A stretch of 64,000 bases of DNA from Lama guanicoe (taxonomy: Eukaryota): the NCBI GenBank assembly GCA_013239625.1, contig MU054469.1, positions 15,735,513-15,799,512 of the forward strand, read 5' to 3'. This document shows, in pieces, positions 20,945-47,500 of the stretch. The stretch's first letter is position 1. Every line of letters starts with the position of its first letter. The position numbers and the translations under genes are program-made. Under the pieces are notes generated by a model. The model was not told the DNA's origin. It saw only the letters and a program-made list of their open reading frames with translations, and ran no database searches.

Positions 20945-21565
20945 AAACAGCTTACTTCTGACTGTGTGGCCTTCCTCCATCCCATTCTCCTTACTTCTTT
21001 AACTCAAAGTTATCTTTATCTTGAATTTGTATTTATCATTCTTATGATTTTTAAAACACATAGTTTAATACTATATGTATTCCTAAAAGGTATATTATTT
21101 AGTTCGTTATTTTTAGCTTAAAAAGTAGGTTCCATGCTAGATGTAATTTTCTGTGACCTTTTTTCCTTACTCAACATTATTTTGCTGAGATGCACCCATA
21201 TTGATGTTTATAGTGGCAGTTCATTTGCTTTGACTGCTGTATAATATCCACTGGGTGAATATACCATACTTTATCCCTTCTGTCAATGGGCATTTGGATT
21301 GCTTCCAGATTTTTTTTCCCCTATTACAACAATGTTGCCGTGAAGAAGTTTACAGATGCTTCCAGGTTCACATGTCAAGAGCCTACATCTAGCATTGGAA
21401 TTACTGAGTTGCAGAGTATGTAAATATTTGATTTTAATAGACAATCCCAAACAGCTTTCCAAAGTGGCTTTTCTAGTTTACACTTCCACCAGCCATTTAC
21501 AAGAGATCTTGTTGATCACACCCTCTCAACAGTTGATATTGTCAGGCTTCTTAAAATTTCCAACA

Positions 21566-22876
21566 CAAGAGAAAGAAATAAAAGGGATCTAAATTGGAAA
21601 AGAAGAGGTAAAAGTGTCATTATATGCTGATGACATGCTACTATATTTAGAAAACCCTAAAAGGTCCACACAAAAGCTACTAGAGCTGATTGACGAATTC
21701 AGCAAGGTAGGAGGTTACAAAATCAACGTTCAAAAGTCAGTTGCATTTCTTTACACTAACGATAAATCAACAGAAAAAGAAAGTAAAGAAACAATCCCCT
21801 TTAAAATAGCACCCAAAGTAATAAAATATCTGGGAATAAATCTAACCAAGGAGGTGAAAGAATTATACACNNNNNNNNNNNNNNNNNNNNNNNNNNNNNN
21901 NNNNNNNNNNNNNNNNNNNNNNNNNNNNNNNNNNNNNNNNNNNNNNNNNNNNNNNNNNNNNNNNNNNNNNNNNNNNNNNNNNNNNNNNNNNNNNNNNNNN
22001 NNNNNNNNNNNNNNNNNNNNNNNNNNNNNATATTTCACAGAACTAGAACAAATCATAATAAAATTTATATGGAACCATCAAAGACCTAGANNNNNNNNNN
22101 NNNNNNNNNNNNNNNNNNNNNNNNNNNNNNNNNNNNNNNNNAAACAGTGTGGAGATTCCTCAAAAGACTAGGAATAGACTTACCATATGACCCAGGAATC
22201 CCACTCCTGGGCTTGTATCCAGAAGGAAATCTACTTCAGGANNNNNNNNNNNNNNNNNNNNNNNNNNNNNNNNNNNNNNNNNNNNNNNNNNNNNNNNNNN
22301 NNNNNNNNNNNNNNNNNNNNNNNNNNNNNNNNNNNNNNNNNNNNNNNNNNNNNNNNNNNNNNNNNNNNNNNNNNNNNNNNNNNNNNNNNNNNNNNNCATT
22401 TGCAGCAACATGGATGCTCCTAGAGAATGTCATTCTAAGTGAAGTAAGCCAGAAAGAGAAAGAAAAATACCATATGAGATTGTTCATATGTGGAATCTAA
22501 AAAACAAAAACAAAAACAAACAAGCAAACAAAAACAAAGCATAAATAAAGGACAGAAATAGACTCACAGACAGAGAATACAGACTTGTGGTTACCAGGGG
22601 GGTGGAGGATGGGAAGGGATAGACTGGGATTTTAAAATTGTAGAATAGATAAACGAGATTACACTGTATAGCACAGGGAAATATACACAAAATATTATGA
22701 TAACTCACAGAGGAAAAAATGTGACAATGAGTGTGTGTATGTCCATGAATGACTGAAAAATTGTGCTGAACAACAAATATTTATGTGGTGTCTATTCTTC
22801 AGCGGACACTGTATTAAAAGTGGAGATGTTGACACAACATTGTAAAATGATTATAAATCAATAAAAAATGTTAAAA
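21566..22876 (+). mobile_element. Young 5'-truncated LINE-1 (ORF2 RT C-terminal part, 3' UTR, A tail) inserted into an older antisense L1ME-like element
   Basis: ORF2 peptides [31 protein letters not shown]...[39 protein letters not shown] and FAATWMLLENVILSEVSQ. Perfect 13-bp TSD aaaatttccaaca (21553-21565, 22877-22889) at a TT|AAAA endonuclease site. In-frame stop near the 5' junction. Confidence 0.95.
22771..22828 (-). repeat. Exact 58-bp inverted copy of 23700-23757 embedded in the L1 3' end
   Basis: caacaaatatttatgtggtgtctattcttcagcggacactgtattaaaagtggagatg is the exact reverse complement of 23700-23757; the match breaks at both next bases. Confidence 0.95.
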
Positions 22877-23929
22877 AAAATTTCCAACAAATGTGTATAA
22901 AATGGAATTTCATTACAGTAGGAATCTGCATTTCCCACATCACTGAATGTCCTTTCCATCTTACAGATTAGCCTTCAAAGATGATGTGGGAAAGTATATA
23001 TGACTACAATTCTTTATTTTAATTGTCTCTATTTAATTTTTAGGTCTTCCTTTCTCAAATCCTCCCTCCCCGTGTTCCCAATAGTCCTTTCTTGCCATCT
23101 TCTAATGTTCTTAGTTTTGACCTTAGGACAACTATAATTAGGGAGGAAATGGACCAAGACTACTCTCCTTTTTTCCTAGTTTCTCTCCCTACAGGGCAGC
23201 AATGTGGAATTGACTAGCAATGCTGCTAGTTAATTTCCCACTAGGATTAGCTCAATGAGGGCAGAACTTGTTCCCTTTCGTTTACAAAGACCCTTTCTGG
23301 GAGACTATTTTCTTTTATGAACTTGAAATGAAAAAAATAATCTGCTGAGTTTTTTACTTGAACATAGACAGCATTAAAAATGGTTAGCAATCTGAGTTCT
23401 ACACCTCTGTCCTGAATATTATCATTTTAACCTTTTTAACCCTTTTAAACAAAAGTTTGAAACAAAAGTAGATGATCTCTGTGGTTCAGTTAAGTATCAA
23501 AATGTTTTTATTCCATGAACAAAATTAACTAGTAGACTAATCTGGTCCTTATGGTCACTTCATTCTCTCTCTCTGTCTCAGTCTCTGATCCAACCAACCC
23601 AGTTAATCTTGGCATTAACATAGGTTGAGATGCGAGATCCATAAGGAGGATTTCAGAGAGGACTCTACCATCCTTCTTTAATTGCTCTGTTTGTCATTGC
23701 ATCTCCACTTTTAATACAGTGTCCGCTGAAGAATAGACACCACATAAATATTTGTTGGTCAGTTGAATGCATAATGATTAAATGAGCTAGGTCTTTATTC
23801 TCTATTCCTACCTTCACTCCACTATCACACTCAAAGTTAAAAGTTATTTGAGTTGTATTTTATTTATGATAAGATCAGGAAGCCCAGAGCAGAGAACATC
23901 TCCATGACCACAAGTTCAGCTAGTTCTCC

Positions 23930-25580: not shown

Positions 25581-26827
25581 TTCTCCACTATTAAACCACA
25601 GATCCTCTTCAAATCAATAAAAAAGATAGATATAAAGTGCTTTCATTTCTTACATTCCTAGGAGAATACCTGATTTTAACTCCAGAAGAAAATGTACAGT
25701 TTACCCACATAGTGTAAGCATGTATATACATGCAAAAGACAACTGAAATGCTGTGTTGTGTGGAAGTATTATGGTGAGGTGTTGTTGTAAGGATGTTGCA
25801 AGTTATATGGCTTAGAACTTATTTTATTTAGATAGAAATCTATTAACTGTTGAAGACCTCTTCTGAATTAGACTTTGCTTACAGAGGTCCTTCTGTGGTA
25901 TTTTTAACTGGGTTATTTTTTTTTTACATATTGTTACTTTTTATTATAGTTTTGAAACTTTACACAAAAGTAGGAAAAGCAGGATATGTACTCATTATCC
26001 AATTTTGGCACATTTTTCACTCCTCTTCCAAACACTGCTGGAGTATTTAAACCAAACCTAGCTATCATATTTTGCCTCTTAATATTTCAGAATTTATTTA
26101 TAAGAAATAAAGATCTCCTTTCTAGAAAAAGTAACCAGGATTGCAGTAACCCAGTCATACAATTGCACCTAAAAAAATGATCAAAATTCTTAATATTCAA
26201 ATTGTTTAAAAAATGTCTTTATATAGTTGATTTGTTTAAATCAAGAGCCAAACAAGGTAAAATGGGTAGTTTATGTTGTTAACTATTTGATTTTATATTC
26301 CGGAAGATGTTTCATCTTTATACTCATTCTAAAGGGAAATGAATGACCAAGGCTGCAATTTGAAATTAAAATCATGATGACAGCAGAATAGGAAAACCTA
26401 GAGTGAGACGTGGAAGTCTTACAGCTTTGGGTTTTCACTTGTGACGCTGACCTAGGGTTCTAGTTTATGACAGTAGATTCTTTTGCTACTGTAGAAAGAA
26501 GAAAAATAATCCTTTTAAAGTACTTGTGCTATAGGAAGCATATGGAGATAAAAAACAGCCTGTCTGTAGGCATTCCAAGACCCCGAAGCTGCATGAACTA
26601 GTCAACATCTCAATCTTTGAAGTTCCCTGGGTGTAGAACTCCCTCCTGTTTTTCACCTATCCTAAACTCTGAGTCTCTTCCTTAAAAATACTTACAAGGG
26701 ATTTGTTGGTAACACTTGCTCCTTGGTTCTTGTATTTTATAATCATGTCTCGGGTTTTTACTTTCTGTATAGGACTATTTGCATATGCCTCTTAAAACTT
26801 GAATCTAATGTTTTATTGGATTTCATT

Positions 26828-27195
26828 TTTTAAATTGAATATAGTCGATTTATAATGTGTTCATTTCTGGTGTACAGCATAGTGATTCAGTTATACATAT
26901 ATGTATTCCTTTTCATATTCTTTTTTATTATAGGCTATTACAAGATATTGAATATAGTTCCCTGTGCTGTACAGTGGAACATTGTTGTTAATCTATTTTA
27001 TATATGGTAGTTAGTTTCTGAAAATCTTGAACTCCCAATTTATCTCTCCCTACCCCCTAACCGCCCTGGTAACCATAAGCTTATTTTCTATGTCTGTGAA
27101 TCTGTTTCTGTTTTGTAAATAAGTTCATTTGTGTTCTTCTTTTTAGATTCCACATATAAATGGTATCATATGGTAATTTTCTTTCTCTTTATGGC
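26828..27195 (-). mobile_element. 5'-truncated L1 3' end with TSD
   Basis: aattgaatatagtcgatttataatgtgttcatttctggtgtacagcatagtgattcag...ttagattccacatataaatggtatcatatgg. TSD ttattggatttcatt (26813-26827) / ttattggacttcatt (27196-27210). Confidence 0.85.
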
Positions 27196-27637
27196 TTATT
27201 GGACTTCATTGTTTTCTAAAATATTATTTAATATGACTGCCACTGAAGTCCCCAAGTGTTTTTACAAGGAGAGACTTTATAATCCCTCTATAGGTCGCTT
27301 GTAATTATCAGAATAAATGAGATTCCCCTTTCAAAGGAGATGGATAGGAAAAAAGTAACAAAGGTAGTATTTATAAAGATAAGATGTTAACATCTTTGTT
27401 TGATGGGGGAATCTAAAATTAAATGAACCCACATCCTTCTGTGGATTCCCATGGTATAACCTCTTGCAGCTATGAAAACTAATGAGTAAATCATCTTTAT
27501 TGATTAGGACCTCAAAATAGAGTGTCTTTTATCTTGCATGCTTCTTTCCCTCAGGTCCCATTTATTATTGTAAAATTACCATTGCTTCTATATTTCCTTT
27601 TATAATGTCTTCTGGAGTCTGGTTTGATAAAACTATA

Positions 27638-39770: not shown

Positions 39771-42700
39771 TATTTCACATATTTTAGTCCCCATATTTGG
39801 TTAGCTCACAGAGCTTGTTCAAGATGGGCATTCATTTCAAACAACGTACAGGAAAAAGTTCTTTGTTAAGTTTATTATGTCATACTAATTGGTCAGCAAG
39901 TAACTATTAATTCCTTACCAAGCATGAAGACTGGGCCTCTGAATTAGGTGTTCTTGGAGATAACAAAGAAGCAGATCTAGAGATTGAGGGTTGAAGGCGG
40001 ATCACCTTGGGGTCTTCCCATCCACTCTGTGATGTATTTTCTGGATGAATCAGGCTAGAACGAACATCAAGAGCAACGCTGAAGGATAAAAGAAGTCACA
40101 GAAATATAGCTGAGGAATGTATGAAAGCAAAGGTCAGTCCTGTACCCATCTTGGTGACTGGCAGGGCTAGTAAAGGGAAAATTGAGGACTTTTTCTATGT
40201 CCAGGGTCTGGGGAGCATAAGAGTAAGTCATAGAAGAAAAACACGGTTCTTCGGAGATATGTATGCGATTGATCCTATCCACATAGGGTTATACTCTTAG
40301 AGACTGTATGAAGTTAATCAGGGAACATTATTGGACTCATAGTATGTCCAGATTCATAATGTAGCAACTCATAACTGTCTTCATCTATAGCACATTTGAA
40401 GAAAGCTACACCTTGTCACCAAGAAGGTGTAACAATCATCAGTTCTCAAGTTTTCTAAACTAAAAGTCTCCCACATACTTCATGAGCTTTCATTCTGTCA
40501 CTGAAGTTATACTTTATGGATTCTAATACAACATTCTCACCTCAGTTTTCTGGAGGACATATGCCTGTGAATGAACAGGTGGCTGGTTAGTATCTTTATT
40601 TTTACTGAATGCCTGAACCATGACAGAACAAGTTATTTTCTTTAAAGAAAGTATAGCTGCCTCTATATAACTCTGGGCTACAGTTCACCTTTTCTGTTTG
40701 TTTTATTCTTAACTTGTGAAACTGTATCTTAGGACTTGGGGTATATAACTTGTTATTTGATATCAGCTGAACAACAGTGAATCAATTGTAATGGTTCTGG
40801 CACCAAAGGAAACATAGGGTACTTAAATATGTTTCCAGAAGACAAAAAGCTTCTCTCTGTGTACACCTTACAACATATGTTTCCACAGTTTTGGATATTC
40901 AAAAGTCCAAAAAAAGTTTTCTCACTACTTCTCATTAAAGATCAAGAGGACGAAACAGAGAAAACAAACTCCAACCCACATATTATTTATCAGATGTTTT
41001 GGATGAAATTCAGATTGAAAAACCAAAAAGTTTCCCTCTTCTCCCTCCCTCCCTCCCTCCCGGCACACGATGCTTATTCCCCACTGCGAAATACACCCAC
41101 TGTCACACACTCCGCCGTGTATCGTTAGCGGTCCAGGAAGGGGGAGGGGGATTGTGTGAATGCAAACAAGTTTGGGCTTCTCTCGGAATCCTTGCTGCCT
41201 GCTGCCTGGGTCGTCGAAGGGCTACCGCAGGCTGGGAGACGTGGCCAGAGCACTTGGGCTCACAATCCGCGTAGGCTCCTAGAGGTTACCGGAAAAATCT
41301 TGAGTAGGGGACGCCTGAACCGCAGAACGCTCCCTGAAACCTCATCGATTCTCCTCTCTTGACATTCAGGCGTCCCGGATAACCTCCCTAGGATTTTTAA
41401 CTTTCCTCGGGGCAAGTGTTTTACGTGGACCCCTTGCACGAGCAGAGCCTGACTTGGCCCCGCTCACTCTGGCCTCCTCGCTCGCCTGGGATCCAGGAGC
41501 CACGCGGAGCGGGTGCGGCTTCTCGTCGCTTTCTCCTGATAGGGAAGAGAAGAGGAGAGAGGAGGTGCTCAGCTCTCCTGGGTACACTCCCAAGCATCGG
41601 TAATTTGGCCTTTACGAAACAAAATGATGCTAAAAGGCAAAACAGCCAACCCGGAGGTGCTCAGCCCTCCCGAGTACGTTCCTAAATAGCTCTAATTCGA
41701 TGTTTAAGAAACAAAACAATGACAAAATGCAAATTAGGCAATATAACATTCAGGATGAGACTCGTTTGACAGGCCAAACTGAGATTTTAAAGGAAAGCTT
41801 TCTCATATCCGCACACCGAATTCATTCTATCTTTTAGTACTTGGGGAAAGAAACGGTGTAATTTTAAGTCCCACCACTGTCACAATGCACACTCCACAGT
41901 AACACGCAGTGAAACAATGGACAGCCCCATATCGCATTGTGTCAGTAATTACGAAGTGCCGCGGCAGGGGCAAGCGAAGTCGGAAGCGTCAGTGTATCCC
42001 CCCGCCGCGAGTGGGAGCAGTTAAGGGCCGCGTTTCTCACCGAAAACTCATCAAAACATTTAGGCCAGTCCCTCAACCCAGAGATGGGCAAACGACATCT
42101 GAGCTTGGCCCCGGGCGGACGTGGACTGAGAGGGCCAAAGAGGCGGCGCGCGAGCGCAGACGGAGCGATCACGACTAGGGGAGAGCAAACGCGCGCAATG
42201 AAGTCGAGGGGAAAGAGTGCACGCCAGAGGGTGGGGAGAGTCCCGTCAGGTGTGGCCAGGGCGCCTGGTCCCTGGAGAATGGAACCCCACGCGGGACACT
42301 GCACTCCTGGCTGCATCCCATCTTTGGGGGTTGGGGGTTAAACCCAGGTCACCAAGACAAGGGTGCACGCGGGGTCACAGGATAACGCANNNNNNNNNNN
42401 NNNNNNNNNNNNNNNNNNNNNNNNNNNNNNNNNNNNNNNNNNNNNNNNNNNNNNNNNNNNNNNNNNNNNNNNNNNNNNNNNNNNNNNNNNNNNNNNNNNN
42501 NNNNNNNNNNNNNNNNNNNNNNNNNAAAAAAAGAAAGAACAGGGAGCTGAAGGCCGAGATGTCCTACTTCTAAGTGGTTCATTGAAAGGCAAAAGCTTTC
42601 TTGCAAGCACAGTCGTAGCTCACGCCGCGTTGGGGACCAGCCGAAACAAGGCGCGGAGACCTCTCCAAGGGACATTTCCAAGGGACCTCCAGCCTCACAC

Positions 42701-43439
42701 GCCCTGAGGTGGTCCCGAAAGGGGGACACTCTATACCGACAGCTGTGGGGAGGTCAGAAGACTGCGGTCTCCTTCTCCCGAGACCCCAGCTCTGCCAGTC
42801 AGAGGCGGGGAGCTCAGTCCACCTTCCCCAGGCGGAGAAAAGCGGCCCTCTAGCAATGCGACCTCAGGTCCCCGCGCTCTCAAACAGCCCAACCTCCTCC
42901 CCTCCTCCCCCCACCCCCATTCATTTTTCCTCAGCAGCTTCTAGTTCCGGCTCAAAACCCAACTCCAAGCACACTCGAGCCCACATCACGGAGCTAAGGG
43001 GAACAACCAGGGTCTTAGCGGGCCCGGGGGCCTCCATGCCGAGGTGGCGGCCGCCGAGGGGCGCCGCGTCCCGCCGGTGCCAGCCGCAGATGAGCCCTTG
43101 GCCACGAGCAGCCCCCTGAGCCGCGCAGCATCCGCGTCTACAGTGACGGTGGAAGCCACGCCCGCTCTGGAGCTGGGGGCAGTCCCAGCCCCCCCACCTT
43201 CTCCCTGCCCGCCCGCCCCCTCCTCCCCGNNNNNNNNNNNNNNNNNNNNNNNNNNNNNNNNNNNNNNNNNNNNNNNNNNNNNNNNNNNNGCTGGCGCGCT
43301 CTCTCGGGTGGACACAGACTCCACGCACGCACGCCCAGAGCCGCTCTCTCCGCGCCCGGCCCTCGTTCCCCTCGCCCATGCAGACGGACAGAGCGACGGA
43401 AGATGGCTGACGACTCCACGGGGCACCGAGAATGCAGCC

Positions 43440-43479
43440 CGGCGGCGGCGGCGGCGGCGGGAGCGGCGGCAGCAGCTGC
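43440..43479 (+). repeat. SOBP: (CGG)n / GCN-rich triplet repeat in the SOBP 5' leader
   Basis: cggcggcggcggcggcggcgggagcggcggcagcagctgc, followed by N. Confidence 0.9.
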
Positions 43480-43577
43480 NNNNNNNNNNNNNNNNNNNNN
43501 NNNNNNNNNNNNNNNNNNNNNNNNNNNNNNNNNNNNNNNNNNNNCCAGCACCGCTACCTCCGCCAGCATTGCCACCA

Positions 43578-43769
43578 NNNNNNNNNNNNNNNNNNNNNNN
43601 NNNNNNNNNNNNNNNNNNNNNNNNNNNNNNNNNNNNNNNNNNNNNNNNNNNNNNNNNNNNNNNNNNNNNNNNNNNNNNNNNNNNNNNNNNNNNNNNNNNN
43701 NNNNNNNNNNNNNNNNNNNNNNNNNNNNNNNNNNNNNNNNNNNNNNNNNNNNNNNNNNNNNNNNNNNNN
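43578..43769 (+). CDS. SOBP: Inferred position of SOBP coding exon 1 (hidden in an N block; not readable)
   Basis: Positional inference only. The block follows GC-rich leader sequence (ccagcaccgctacctccgccagcattgccacca) and precedes intron-like sequence. The expected MAEMEKEGRPPENK start is not visible elsewhere in the window. Confidence 0.5.
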
Positions 43770-44508
43770 TATATTTGGACTTCGGGGCTGGAGAGACTGA
43801 GCTCTTTCTTCCGTCTGCTCCCTTTGGGCCGTTGTATGGATTTGGGGGGTACAGGGGAGCGCTTGTCAGTTTCTGTAGGATGCCCAGAACGCCTCAGCTC
43901 CTCCTCCAGGTGCAAAACAGAGGCCAACTCGCGGGTTGCGTCCCCGAGATTTGCCTATCTCAGATTCGATGAGGGTGGGGGGCGGCTGGGAGACCATATA
44001 CTATTTAACCTTATAAACCCCTGGTTGGTACACGCGCGTTTCAGAGGGAGGGGACCGGGGGCCCATGTGGCGTGTGGGCATGGTGAAGAGACTCCCTAGT
44101 CGGTGGAATAGTTTTTCCCTCTTCTTCGGGAACCATCCTTTGGATCTCTCCAAAGTTAGGAGCCACCGGGCCGAGGCACCTCGGGAGCGCACAATTTCCC
44201 CCTCCCCCCAGTTCATCTCCCGGCTCCTCGATGCCGCTTCTCCCCTAGTAGCCAGCTGCGAGGGTATGAAGAGGCTGTCAAGTGCCGAAGCGAGTTGCGG
44301 CCCGAGCGGCGCGGGTCGGGTACCGTTTTGACGGCCGGCTCGCCTCGCCCGCCCCTGCCCGCTCCTCTCACTCGGCGGCCTCTGCCTCCCGCTTGCCTTT
44401 GCATGCTCCACTTCCCAGTTAAGCGGACCTGGGCAAGATCCACTGAAAGATAGCTGTCTGAGGGGCGGCCTTCGCAGAGCGCCTGCCCATTGTTCCGAAA
44501 GGCCAGCC

Positions 44509-44549
44509 CCGAGTCCTGTCGGCGAGGCCGAGTCCTGTCGGCGAGGCCG
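44509..44549. repeat. Perfect 19-bp tandem duplication
   Basis: ccgagtcctgtcggcgagg x2 followed by ccg. Confidence 0.9.
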
Positions 44550-47500
44550 GGCTCCCCGCCAAGCCAGCGGTGCTCCAGAGGTGGCAAGGGCAGCAGCCTG
44601 ACGCTCCAGCTGTTCGCGTTGGAGTGATTGCTCAAGACCGCTCAGCTCCGGACCTCCCTTGTCCCCCCACTTATTTTTCACGGAGTTGCAGCTTTCACGC
44701 GGCGAGGGTTTTATTTTGTGTTGATTTCATGAATCCCTTTTTATTTTTTTAAATTCTTTTATTTGTATTTTTTGTCTTTCTGTAAGTTACTAACAAGTAG
44801 CAGATTTCGGGGAGGGACTTTAGTTTTCATTCTGCAGCCGTCTTGGTGTTCCCCATCTTCTGCATAGAATCCTTAACACTGACAACTGACTTGGTCAGCT
44901 TGGTTGAATTTGTATTTAAAAGACAAACGATGAAAATGGCAAGCAACTAAGTAAAATTTCTTGCAGTTTGACCTTGTCTTGATTAGAACAAGTATATTCT
45001 CAGAAGGTGCCTTGTATGAAGCCCGTATTTAGAAAGGGGCACATGGATAATACAACCTGTATGTGTACTTAGGTGCATATGCTTAGTGTTCCTTTCTTCT
45101 AGAAAATGTCTGTAGCAATCTACATCTTGGAATTAGGGTTTTTATTTTGGGGTGAGGCCATTCCTTGGGATAGAAACCACCGTTGATTCCACTGATAGTT
45201 TTTTTTTTTTAAAAAAAGAGACTGGTAGGAGTTGTTGTCTTCCCATGGGGGTGGAATTCAAACAGCCTACAATAACCATGATTCCTTACTCGCCCTTCTC
45301 TCCTGTCCTGCGTTTCCAGATTACTTTTCCATTTCATTTTAAATAGGGGGTGGAGGAAGAGGAGAGAGGTGAAGCCACTAAGAAATCACAGTGTGTGCTG
45401 GCCCNNNNNNNNNNNNNNNNNNNNNNNNNNNNNNNNNNNNNNNNNNNNNNNNNNNNNNNNNNNNNNNNNNNNNNNNNNNNNNNNNNNNNNNNNNNNNNNN
45501 NNNNNNNNNNNNNNNNNNNNNNNNNNNNNNNNNNNNNNNNNNNNNNNNNNNNNNNNNNNNTGACTTTGGCTGNNNNNNNNNNNNNNNNNNNNNNNNNNNN
45601 NNNNNNNNNNNNNNNNNNNNNNNNNNNNNNNNNNNNNNNNNNNNNNNNNNNNNNNNNNNNNNNNNNNNNNNNNNNNNNNNNNNNNNNNNNNNNNNNNNNN
45701 NNNNNNNNNNNNNNNNNNNNNNNNNNNNNNNNNNNNGAATTTCCTCTTTTAAAAATGTTATTTTTTTTCCCAAATCACCACCTACTATTTGAAATTTTAA
45801 TCCTCATCATTTCAGTACAGAGTAGCATTAAATAAGAAGTTTTATGCAGCAAATAACTCAATTGCCTGAAGGATCAGTATTTTCTCCCTACTTTAGAGCA
45901 GTGTATAAGAGAGATCTCTGGTGGAAATCTTCAGCTGTGTCAATGGACACCATGCCAGAGAGACATGAAATCCCATTTCTAGCAGAATTGTTCAGTATGC
46001 ATTCTTCTAATATAATAGCACCCAAAGTCCTCTTTTAAAAGGTGATTTCGTTAAAGTCAAAAGGTGGAAGGGTTATTTTGAGCGCATTAATATTTTTCTG
46101 CTTTTAATATTAATAACCATATCAATAAAACCCCTCCCCAAACCTCGTGGCATTACCACCCATCCATCTCCCCAAACCTAAAGTGTAGAGTAACATAACA
46201 CGTTGATTGCCCTGTATAAAAATACGTGTAACAANNNNNNNNNNNNNNNNNNNNNNNNNNNNNNNNNNNNNNNNNNNNNNNNNNNNNNNNNNNNNNNNNN
46301 NNNNNNNNNNNNNNNNNNNNNNNNNNNNNNNNNNNNNNNNNNNNNNNNNNNNNNNNNNNNNNNNNNNNNNNNNNNNNNNNNNNNNNNNNNNNNNNNNNNN
46401 NNNNNNNNNNNNNNNNNNNNNNNNNNNNNNNNNNNNNNNNNNNNNNNNNNNNNNNNNNNNNNNNNNNNNNNNNNNNNNNNNNNNNNNNNNNNNNNNNNNN
46501 NNNNNNNNNNNNNNNNNNNNNNNNNNNNNNNNNNNNNNNNNNNNNNNNNNNNNNNNNNNNNNNNNNNNNNNNNNNNNNNNNNNNNNNNNNNNNNNNNNNN
46601 NNNNNNNNNNNNNNNNNNNNNNNNNNNNNNNNNNNNNNNNNCCGCGAGCTGAAAGAAAAAGGACTGGTGTGTATGTGATTTTTTTTTTCCCCTTCGGGTA
46701 ATAGAGGGGACATTGGTACAAGTGTCTATTTTAAGTACAGCAAATGCAGGGCACTGAGAATGAGCAACAAAATTGTCTCATCATAGAGATTTCCTTCAAG
46801 ATTTCCTCACTGAGATAGTCACATATTTATTTAAACATGGCTGGAGAAGGCAAATTGGCAGAGGTTTAGCTGACACCAGTAATGGCATTGGAGGTTGTCT
46901 TCATGTGGCTGGGAGCTAATGTTGGTTGCTGTTTCACTAGATCAGATATTGAGTTACATTTTCGTTATCACTGGTTTAATGCACATGGCAGTTGTAACAA
47001 ATTTAAATTTGATACAATGTAATTTTGTGTGTGAAAAGTACATGACTTGGCATAGCTTTAGTGTCCTTTAGTGAAAATAGCTTCAAGTAGAAATGTTTGT
47101 CTCATTATGACCTTTACAATGTTTCCTTATCTTTCCTTTTCTTCTTCCTCACTTCATCCTGGTTTTTCTTAATTAAAAATACTTGGTACTTTATTGTACT
47201 TATAGTCAGTCTGCCTTATTTAATTAGTGACCAATAGAGAGCATTTTAAAAAAATCAGATTGCAATGCAATTTATAAATTTTGACTACTTTCGGTTTCTA
47301 AAGCTCACATGGATTATAATAAATGGATCTTAGGAGGGAATTCTGATATATAGAAGTGTTAATTCGTTTCAGGAGTTCATCTAGAACATTATATAAAAAC
47401 TAATTTGTGATACTGGATATGTAAATACATGAATAAGTGTAAATATAGTTGCACTTAAGGGTATGTATTTTGTGCACATAGATCTTGGGGAACATGATTA

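Follow-up and report, generated by a model that had tools for sequence, protein, structure and literature searches.

The 3′ end of a young L1 copy in the window (the whole 64,000-nt stretch of Lama guanicoe contig that was analyzed) carries an exact inverted copy of DNA from its own flank. The two arms, 22771–22828 and 23700–23757, are reverse complements at 58 of 58 positions with 871 nt between them, as the original prediction had it, and the match grows to 63 nt with one mismatch when taken as 22766–22828 and 23700–23762. Across 264 kb, made up of the window and 200 kb of contig around it, no other non-simple exact inverted repeat reaches 20 nt with its arms no more than 5 kb apart. Within the assembly, the inverted copy is real and lies far beyond chance expectation. 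Its leading explanation, to which we give slightly less than an even chance, would be that a DNA polymerase, repairing a break or replicating the locus once the L1 was already in place, switched template a single time and returned. What remains is likely a commonplace trace of DNA being repaired or copied.

The insert and its host L1

The first arm sits in a 5′-truncated L1 (21566–22876; Table 1), which we take to be a camelid element and whose body contains a Pfam RVT_1 match (E = 1.5e-9) in 21593–21868. The perfect 13-bp target-site repeats (TSDs) expected around it are present (13/13 bp) together with a TT/AAAA site, so the insert lies inside an insertion that has intact TSDs and an endonuclease site. 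No microhomology was found at the 5′ junction of the L1 body (21566).

Sister L1s were sought in the same genome, and 40 of 1,001 candidates were scored, 39 of which were sisters. The L1 text preceding the insert is matched by all 39 and the tail by 38 of them, and no sister matches across the middle. In the 29 sister loci with text compared, the L1 is continuous and has 7 nt where the window has 56 new nt. These 7 nt are the replaced L1 bases that the original prediction had proposed to define. That prediction had also described a 58-bp insertion; the copy is exact over this length, but its first two nucleotides are common to the L1 sisters and thus only 56 are new. No 16-mer of the insert occurs in any of 58 sister loci (0/58), in agreement with the expectation that the 58-mer is foreign to the L1 subfamily, and an origin as a subfamily feature was rejected on this count. 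A 3′ transduction was rejected as well, given that the insert stands upstream of the poly(A) tail and is carried by none of the 58 loci; a BLAST search of the window with one sister locus found no source L1 for transduction of the donor region.

Across 22090–22142, this L1 is about 826 nt shorter than all 29 sister loci, in which the two anchors are 876–877 nt apart (29/29; L002 and L037 among them represent one L1 copy). The unreadable stretch between these anchors may reflect a true internal loss of about 826 nt, or else a gap whose size the assembly underestimates. Assembly gaps of 29–1432 N are present in 8 of the 58 sister loci, and a real, gap-free deletion of about 0.3 kb was found in one of 42 aligned sisters (L009:1183; G000:C7460).

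Several other features of the L1 copies were observed. The segment 21638–21736 departs from the sister L1s at six near-private positions within 100 nt, half of these changes being transversions, and three other L1 segments (202 nt) have none; the segment is possibly an older or recombinant 5′ piece. The sister L1s L003, L006, and L018 have 5′ inversions typical of twin priming. An older minus-strand L1 3′ fragment at 26824–27206, 66–77% like other L1 copies, makes imperfect inverted repeats with the young L1 at a distance of 4.2–4.6 kb.

Table 1. Positions of the host L1, the insert, the donor, and the associated signals in the window.
Feature	Positions	Strand	Remarks
Left TSD, 13 bp	21553..21565	+	Identical to 22877–22889; after a TT/AAAA endonuclease-type site
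L1 body (ORF2 end and 3′ UTR), 5′-truncated, young	21566..22772	+	95.7–100% identity to sister L037
Unreadable 51-nt stretch	22091..22141	+	Sisters hold 876–877 nt there
5′ junction, 7 nt of L1 text	22766..22772	+	6/7 match to the 7 nt upstream in the donor; putative priming end
Net insert, 56 nt, inverted copy of 23700–23755	22773..22828	+	Replaces 7 nt of L1 3′ UTR
L1 3′ tail, 48 nt, resuming after the insert	22829..22876	+	Matched by 38/39 scored sisters, up to 100%
Right TSD, 13 bp	22877..22889	+	Identical to left TSD
9-mer common to donor start and target-site edge	22884..22892	+	P about 0.02 vs 7,896 control positions, post hoc
U/GU-rich stretch, 22–45 nt past the putative cleavage site	23447..23470	-	Source sequence
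Span copied elsewhere (G000:C4027, L034 5396–5833)	23492..23927	-	Likely L1-made retrocopy; putative RNA 3′ end
AATAAA signal	23507..23512	-	Distant copy ends 15 nt past it
Donor (23700–23755) and putative priming site (23756–23762)	23700..23762	+	In old repeat tail

The donor and a putative minus-strand RNA

The donor lies in the tail of an old repeat, presumably L2-like, and similar old repeat tails occur nearby. Besides the insert, the sequence has two copies in the genome (3/3 candidates), the local one, at 100% identity, and a distant one, at 92%. The distant copy keeps the 58-mer in the context of the flank and differs from it at 4 of 58 nt. Since the insert agrees with the local flank rather than the distant copy at all four of these sites, and the distant copy shares the flank context, the flank copy is identified as the donor and the copying as having occurred in cis. 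The earlier proposal that the second copy served as a local template is thereby supported. The donor parent is unambiguous (4/4 sites), but under the criteria of PMC2671141 a strict filter might have dropped this case.

The span that includes the donor aligns with the distant copy over 436 nt, with 34 mismatches, and the flanks of the distant copy are unrelated to the window. Direct repeats flank the distant copy (16/18 matching, with an exact core of 10 nt), and a short A-run follows its end, the A-tail being eroded to about 7 nt and lying partly within the direct repeat. The chance of an AATAAA signal so placed at a random end is 0.028 (46,015 positions). The U/GU-rich stretch beyond the putative cleavage site is presumably of the poly(A) downstream-element type, as we read it from general knowledge. 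The direct repeats, the signal, and the A-run suggest that the distant copy is likely an old retrocopy that L1 machinery made from the 3′ end of a polyadenylated RNA of the minus strand. Such a germ-line RNA would have its terminus near 23492, leaving about 0.6 kb between it and the L1 site. In the parts of PMC5110952 drawn on here, class 1 templated sequence insertions have a TSD, an end 10–30 nt after a cryptic poly(A) signal, and an A-rich start of the duplication. The distant copy is alike in its 16/18 repeat, its end 15 nt after AATAAA, and its short A-run, and it differs in being old, only 92% identical, and worn in its A-tail.

The source of this RNA may be a CpG island at about 41–45 kb. 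The region 41000–45000 has a GC content of 0.52–0.68, a CpG observed/expected ratio of 0.67–0.80, and plus-strand GCG repeats, and is likely a first exon. The distant copy would be a fossil trace of germ-line transcription antisense to the CpG-island gene and upstream of it. A 19-bp tandem duplication was also observed at 44509–44549. Searches for the host gene gave no Pfam match in 80 N-free ORFs of at least 70 aa at 24–63 kb (an 81st ORF, in the L1, gave RVT_1) or in 80 of the 281 plus-strand ORFs of the next 100 kb.

The donor lies 208–263 nt upstream of the putative cleavage site, and the insert, relative to the L1, reads in the sense of the putative RNA. Only 4–18% of inverted donors within 1.1–5 kb would fall in the span of this RNA end, a context that the original prediction lacked. 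The two arms are predicted in silico to pair strongly (−105.6 kcal/mol as RNA and −74.5 kcal/mol as DNA). The idea of a 58-bp stem in transcribed or single-stranded nucleic acid stands for RNA only in the case of read-through, because the putative poly(A) site falls between the arms. A functional hairpin was rejected for the same reason. No function is evident for the insertion, and the mechanism implies none.

How the insert may have arisen

At the 5′ junction, the last 2 of the 7 nt match the donor perfectly, and the single mismatch holds the base of the L1 instead of that of the donor. A 6/7 in-register match was reached by 12 of 7,896 control positions (P = 0.0015), a value to be relaxed a few-fold because the 7-nt length was picked after seeing the data. 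The L1 base kept at the mismatch fits an L1 plus-strand DNA end as the primer, to which the left junction would point, and could also remain after repair of a DNA heteroduplex; it fits poorly with a first-strand cDNA, in which the donor base would be expected. The 3′ junction has 0 nt of in-register microhomology and a gapped likeness of 15/21 (P = 0.013). The junction similarity originally noted where the L1 resumes is therefore present but out of register, and the clean similarity is that of the 5′ junction. The 9-mer noted earlier as common to the start of the donor and the target site is confirmed, and is probably a chance match. A model in which the target plus-strand end used it as a primer, copying the donor first with the L1 body placed between later, was set aside, as it leaves the rarer 6/7 match unexplained (P = 0.0015 vs 0.02).

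For the age of the L1, 800 positions (about 60% of the L1) were compared with the sister majority, leaving out N, the insert, and 22397–22479. Differences were found at 19 of the 800, of which 12 are near-private (not common to a sizeable sister group). On this basis, co-insertion predicts 1.7–2.7 differences between the insert and the donor, and none was seen (P = 0.07–0.19), which favors a later date roughly 2.5–5 fold. The earlier view that zero mismatches imply a recent event holds only loosely, as the dating is hardly finer than that of the L1 itself. Sequencing runs are uninformative on this question: 18 of 23 listed runs (7 studies) contain 0.89–0.90 of 120 sampled words and none contains 1.0, and about 0.85–0.92 would be expected alike if the L1 were absent, if it lacked the insert, or if repeats had been left out of the contigs.

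Repair or replication after the L1 insertion accounts for these patterns best. A plus-strand end at 22772 would have come free, at a break or a stalled fork, and would have paired over 7 nt, 6 of them matching and the final 2 without mismatch, with plus-strand DNA at 23756–23762, bridging about 0.93 kb as it was before the event. The paired end would then have copied 56 nt, after which loose, out-of-register similarity would have let the strand rejoin the L1 tail at a point 7 nt beyond. Such a process would be a proximal repair-mediated duplication, SDSA/MMBIR-like, with the four-point order 1-4-3-2. The exact copy, its direction, the 7-nt loss, and the absence from the sisters are direct observations, as are the junction matches; we infer the priming strand, the timing, the enzyme, and the minus-strand RNA. 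The rarity of the 6/7 match among controls and the retained L1 base speak for a plus-strand primer, interrupted microhomology is common in germline templated insertions according to passages of PMC8421209, and the sequence features agree with the criteria given in PMC2671141. The date weighs on the same side, although zero mismatches have P = 0.07–0.19 under co-insertion. Other points sit less easily with repair after insertion: 48 nt separate the insert from the L1 end, and a second break (the missing 826 nt) may have occurred in this L1, two features in keeping with an unstable insertion reaction; the donor falls in the putative RNA end, as few inverted donors would; and the 3′ junction lacks in-register microhomology. 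Rough priors are about equal for events after and during insertion, taking the 0.18–0.26 duplications per Mb in the available parts of PMC2671141 over a young 1.3-kb copy against the 22 of 3,611 somatic L1s in those of 10.1101/2024.08.27.596794.

An unlikely alternative places the event in first-strand reverse transcription: after 48 nt of L1 RNA had been copied, the enzyme would have jumped to the 3′ end of a host RNA of the minus strand whose synthesis was being completed about 0.6 kb away, copied 56 nt, and returned to the L1 RNA. In a variant, included in the same estimate, the enzyme would have landed not on the RNA but on single-stranded DNA of that same strand, freed by displacement. 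The orientation of the insert is the one that an RNA jump needs, but every fold-back model yields the same orientation. The position of the donor in the putative RNA end would arise by chance in the 4–18% given above, and the retrocopy suggests that the L1 machinery had used the same RNA in the germ line before. The retrocopy is older than the L1 (divergence per branch 3.9% vs 1.5–2.4%), so transcription of the RNA at the time of L1 insertion can only be presumed. As far as the cited passages go, ORF2p switches templates in vitro, uses 5-nt primers, and tolerates terminal mismatches (PMC10830420), one somatic co-insertion has been attributed to local pre-mRNA (PMC10191854), and nine inserts are made of two RNAs (PMC11702581). 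The junction argues against an RNA jump, because a cDNA running through the 7-nt match would hold the donor base where the L1 base is present, and the extra match at the 5′ junction would have to be chance (a few percent).

A switch of the second strand during insertion, in which the plus strand would have left the cDNA 55 nt before its end, primed on the flank, and returned, is likewise unlikely. It shares the junction logic of the 6/7 match with repair after insertion, the site is close to the cDNA end, and a deletion of 826 nt, if real, would fit. ORF2p copies DNA as well as RNA (PMC10830420, in part), and new L1 insertions can carry inserts templated from nearby DNA, with three cases in the excerpts of PMC11702581 besides the 22 mentioned above. 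However, the reported templates are typically within 15 bp of the site and the donor here is 0.8 kb away, the clean TSD indicates that the flank was little processed, and the zero mismatches favor a later date.

Fold-back by polymerase theta is decidedly unlikely. At a break in the L1 tail, a minus-strand end would have folded back, copied 56 nt off its own resected strand or the local RNA, and joined the left end through a 7-nt heteroduplex. As described in passages of PMC7165422, fold-back yields inverted copies from the same side, and the newly made end would provide the 6/7 match; however, the inserts reported there are 3–30 bp, with single tracts rarely above 10 bp, and the case here is one 56-nt tract from about 0.9 kb away, which would require about 0.9 kb of resection and a priming end with no terminal base pairs. 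The original prediction of a template switch to nearby DNA, in target-primed reverse transcription or by polymerase theta, is upheld for local templating; polymerase theta fits poorly, and a first-strand reverse-transcriptase switch fits poorly with the 5′ junction.

An assembly or library chimera is very improbable: the assembly is fragmented (55,231 contigs), gaps affect 8 of the 58 sister L1 loci, and an artefact would give perfect identity, but a chimera needs two junctions 56 nt apart with the L1 resumed exactly 7 nt on, one junction match that only 12 of 7,896 control sites reach, and agreement of both target-site repeats, in an event class that is common and validated in other mammals (PMC2671141, in part).

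Known classes and meaning

The original prediction gave the event no named class, and in its sequence features it fits proximal repair-mediated duplication (RD) as defined by Pace, Sen, Batzer and Feschotte (2009; PMC2671141). In the main passages of that paper, an element is interrupted by at least 50 bp with its halves within 30 bp in consensus position, the donor is 50 bp to 5 kb from the acceptor, the insert has no poly(A), and the junctions have microhomology of 2–9 nt, with a deletion of 1–15 nt or filler. The same passages report 824 RDs in human, with a mean length of 162 bp, a median of 147 bp, and a distance peak of about 1.2 kb, and 0.18–0.26 RDs per Mb of element DNA in non-primate mammals. 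Here, 56 nt are inserted between halves 7 nt apart in the sisters, the donor is 871 nt away and hence near the peak, and the 5′ junction has 2 perfect nt (6/7) with a 7-nt deletion and no poly(A) tail. Compared with the reported RDs, the insert is at the short end (56 nt vs a median of 147), its host L1 is young, and its donor lies in a putative RNA 3′ end.

Related classes agree in part. MMB-TI (Osia et al., 2021; PMC8421209), in the portion of the paper drawn on, shares the inverted nearby copy, the interrupted microhomology (here 6/7 in register at the 5′ junction and loose similarity with P = 0.013 at the 3′ junction), the return to the original template, and germline occurrence; its templates are within 100 bp and the donor here is 871 nt away, so the event works alike but falls outside the operational definition. 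The points 22772, 22829, 23700, and 23755 make an inverted repeat as in the four-point template switch 1-4-3-2, a type that accounts for 31% of human–chimp template-switch events in the cited parts of PMC5453318 and PMC7954356. That model is short-range, with copied lengths of 12 (median) to 128 (maximum), whereas the jump here is about 0.93 kb. For polymerase theta templated insertions (PMC7165422, in part), one 56-nt tract from about 0.9 kb away lies outside the class.

Inserts in new L1s, as presented in parts of 10.1101/2024.08.27.596794 (22 templated pieces in 3,611 somatic L1s, mostly from within 15 bp), PMC11702581 (3 L1 inserts with local DNA and 9 with two RNAs), and PMC10191854 (one somatic case attributed to local pre-mRNA), are alike in having near-site non-L1 DNA inside a TSD-flanked insertion. 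They differ in being somatic or from cell lines and in their typically closer templates, and their main-text passages describe no out-and-back jump inside the L1 3′ UTR. A partial literature search found no germ-line out-and-back RNA capture by L1, which may still have been reported, and the portion of PMC12016303 that was covered holds nothing on templated inserts. No look-alike stretches were found in the other genomes scanned.

Taken alone, one such repair scar is of little consequence: mammalian genomes are known to carry hundreds each, and this one shows no evident function. The insertion is usable as a homoplasy-free marker for camelid populations. Its value otherwise is as a test case, with a young L1, clean junctions, and a donor in a putative RNA end that the L1 machinery likely copied before. 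The link to this RNA 3′ end is the one feature beyond routine. With low probability, the insert would be a germ-line fossil left when L1 reverse transcriptase switched from the L1 RNA to a host transcript undergoing polyadenylation 0.6 kb from the target site, and then back again. If the RNA reading is true, some "repair-mediated duplications" in young L1s would represent RNA captured in zones of transcription termination, and local transcription termination would be linked to what L1 carries into the germ line.
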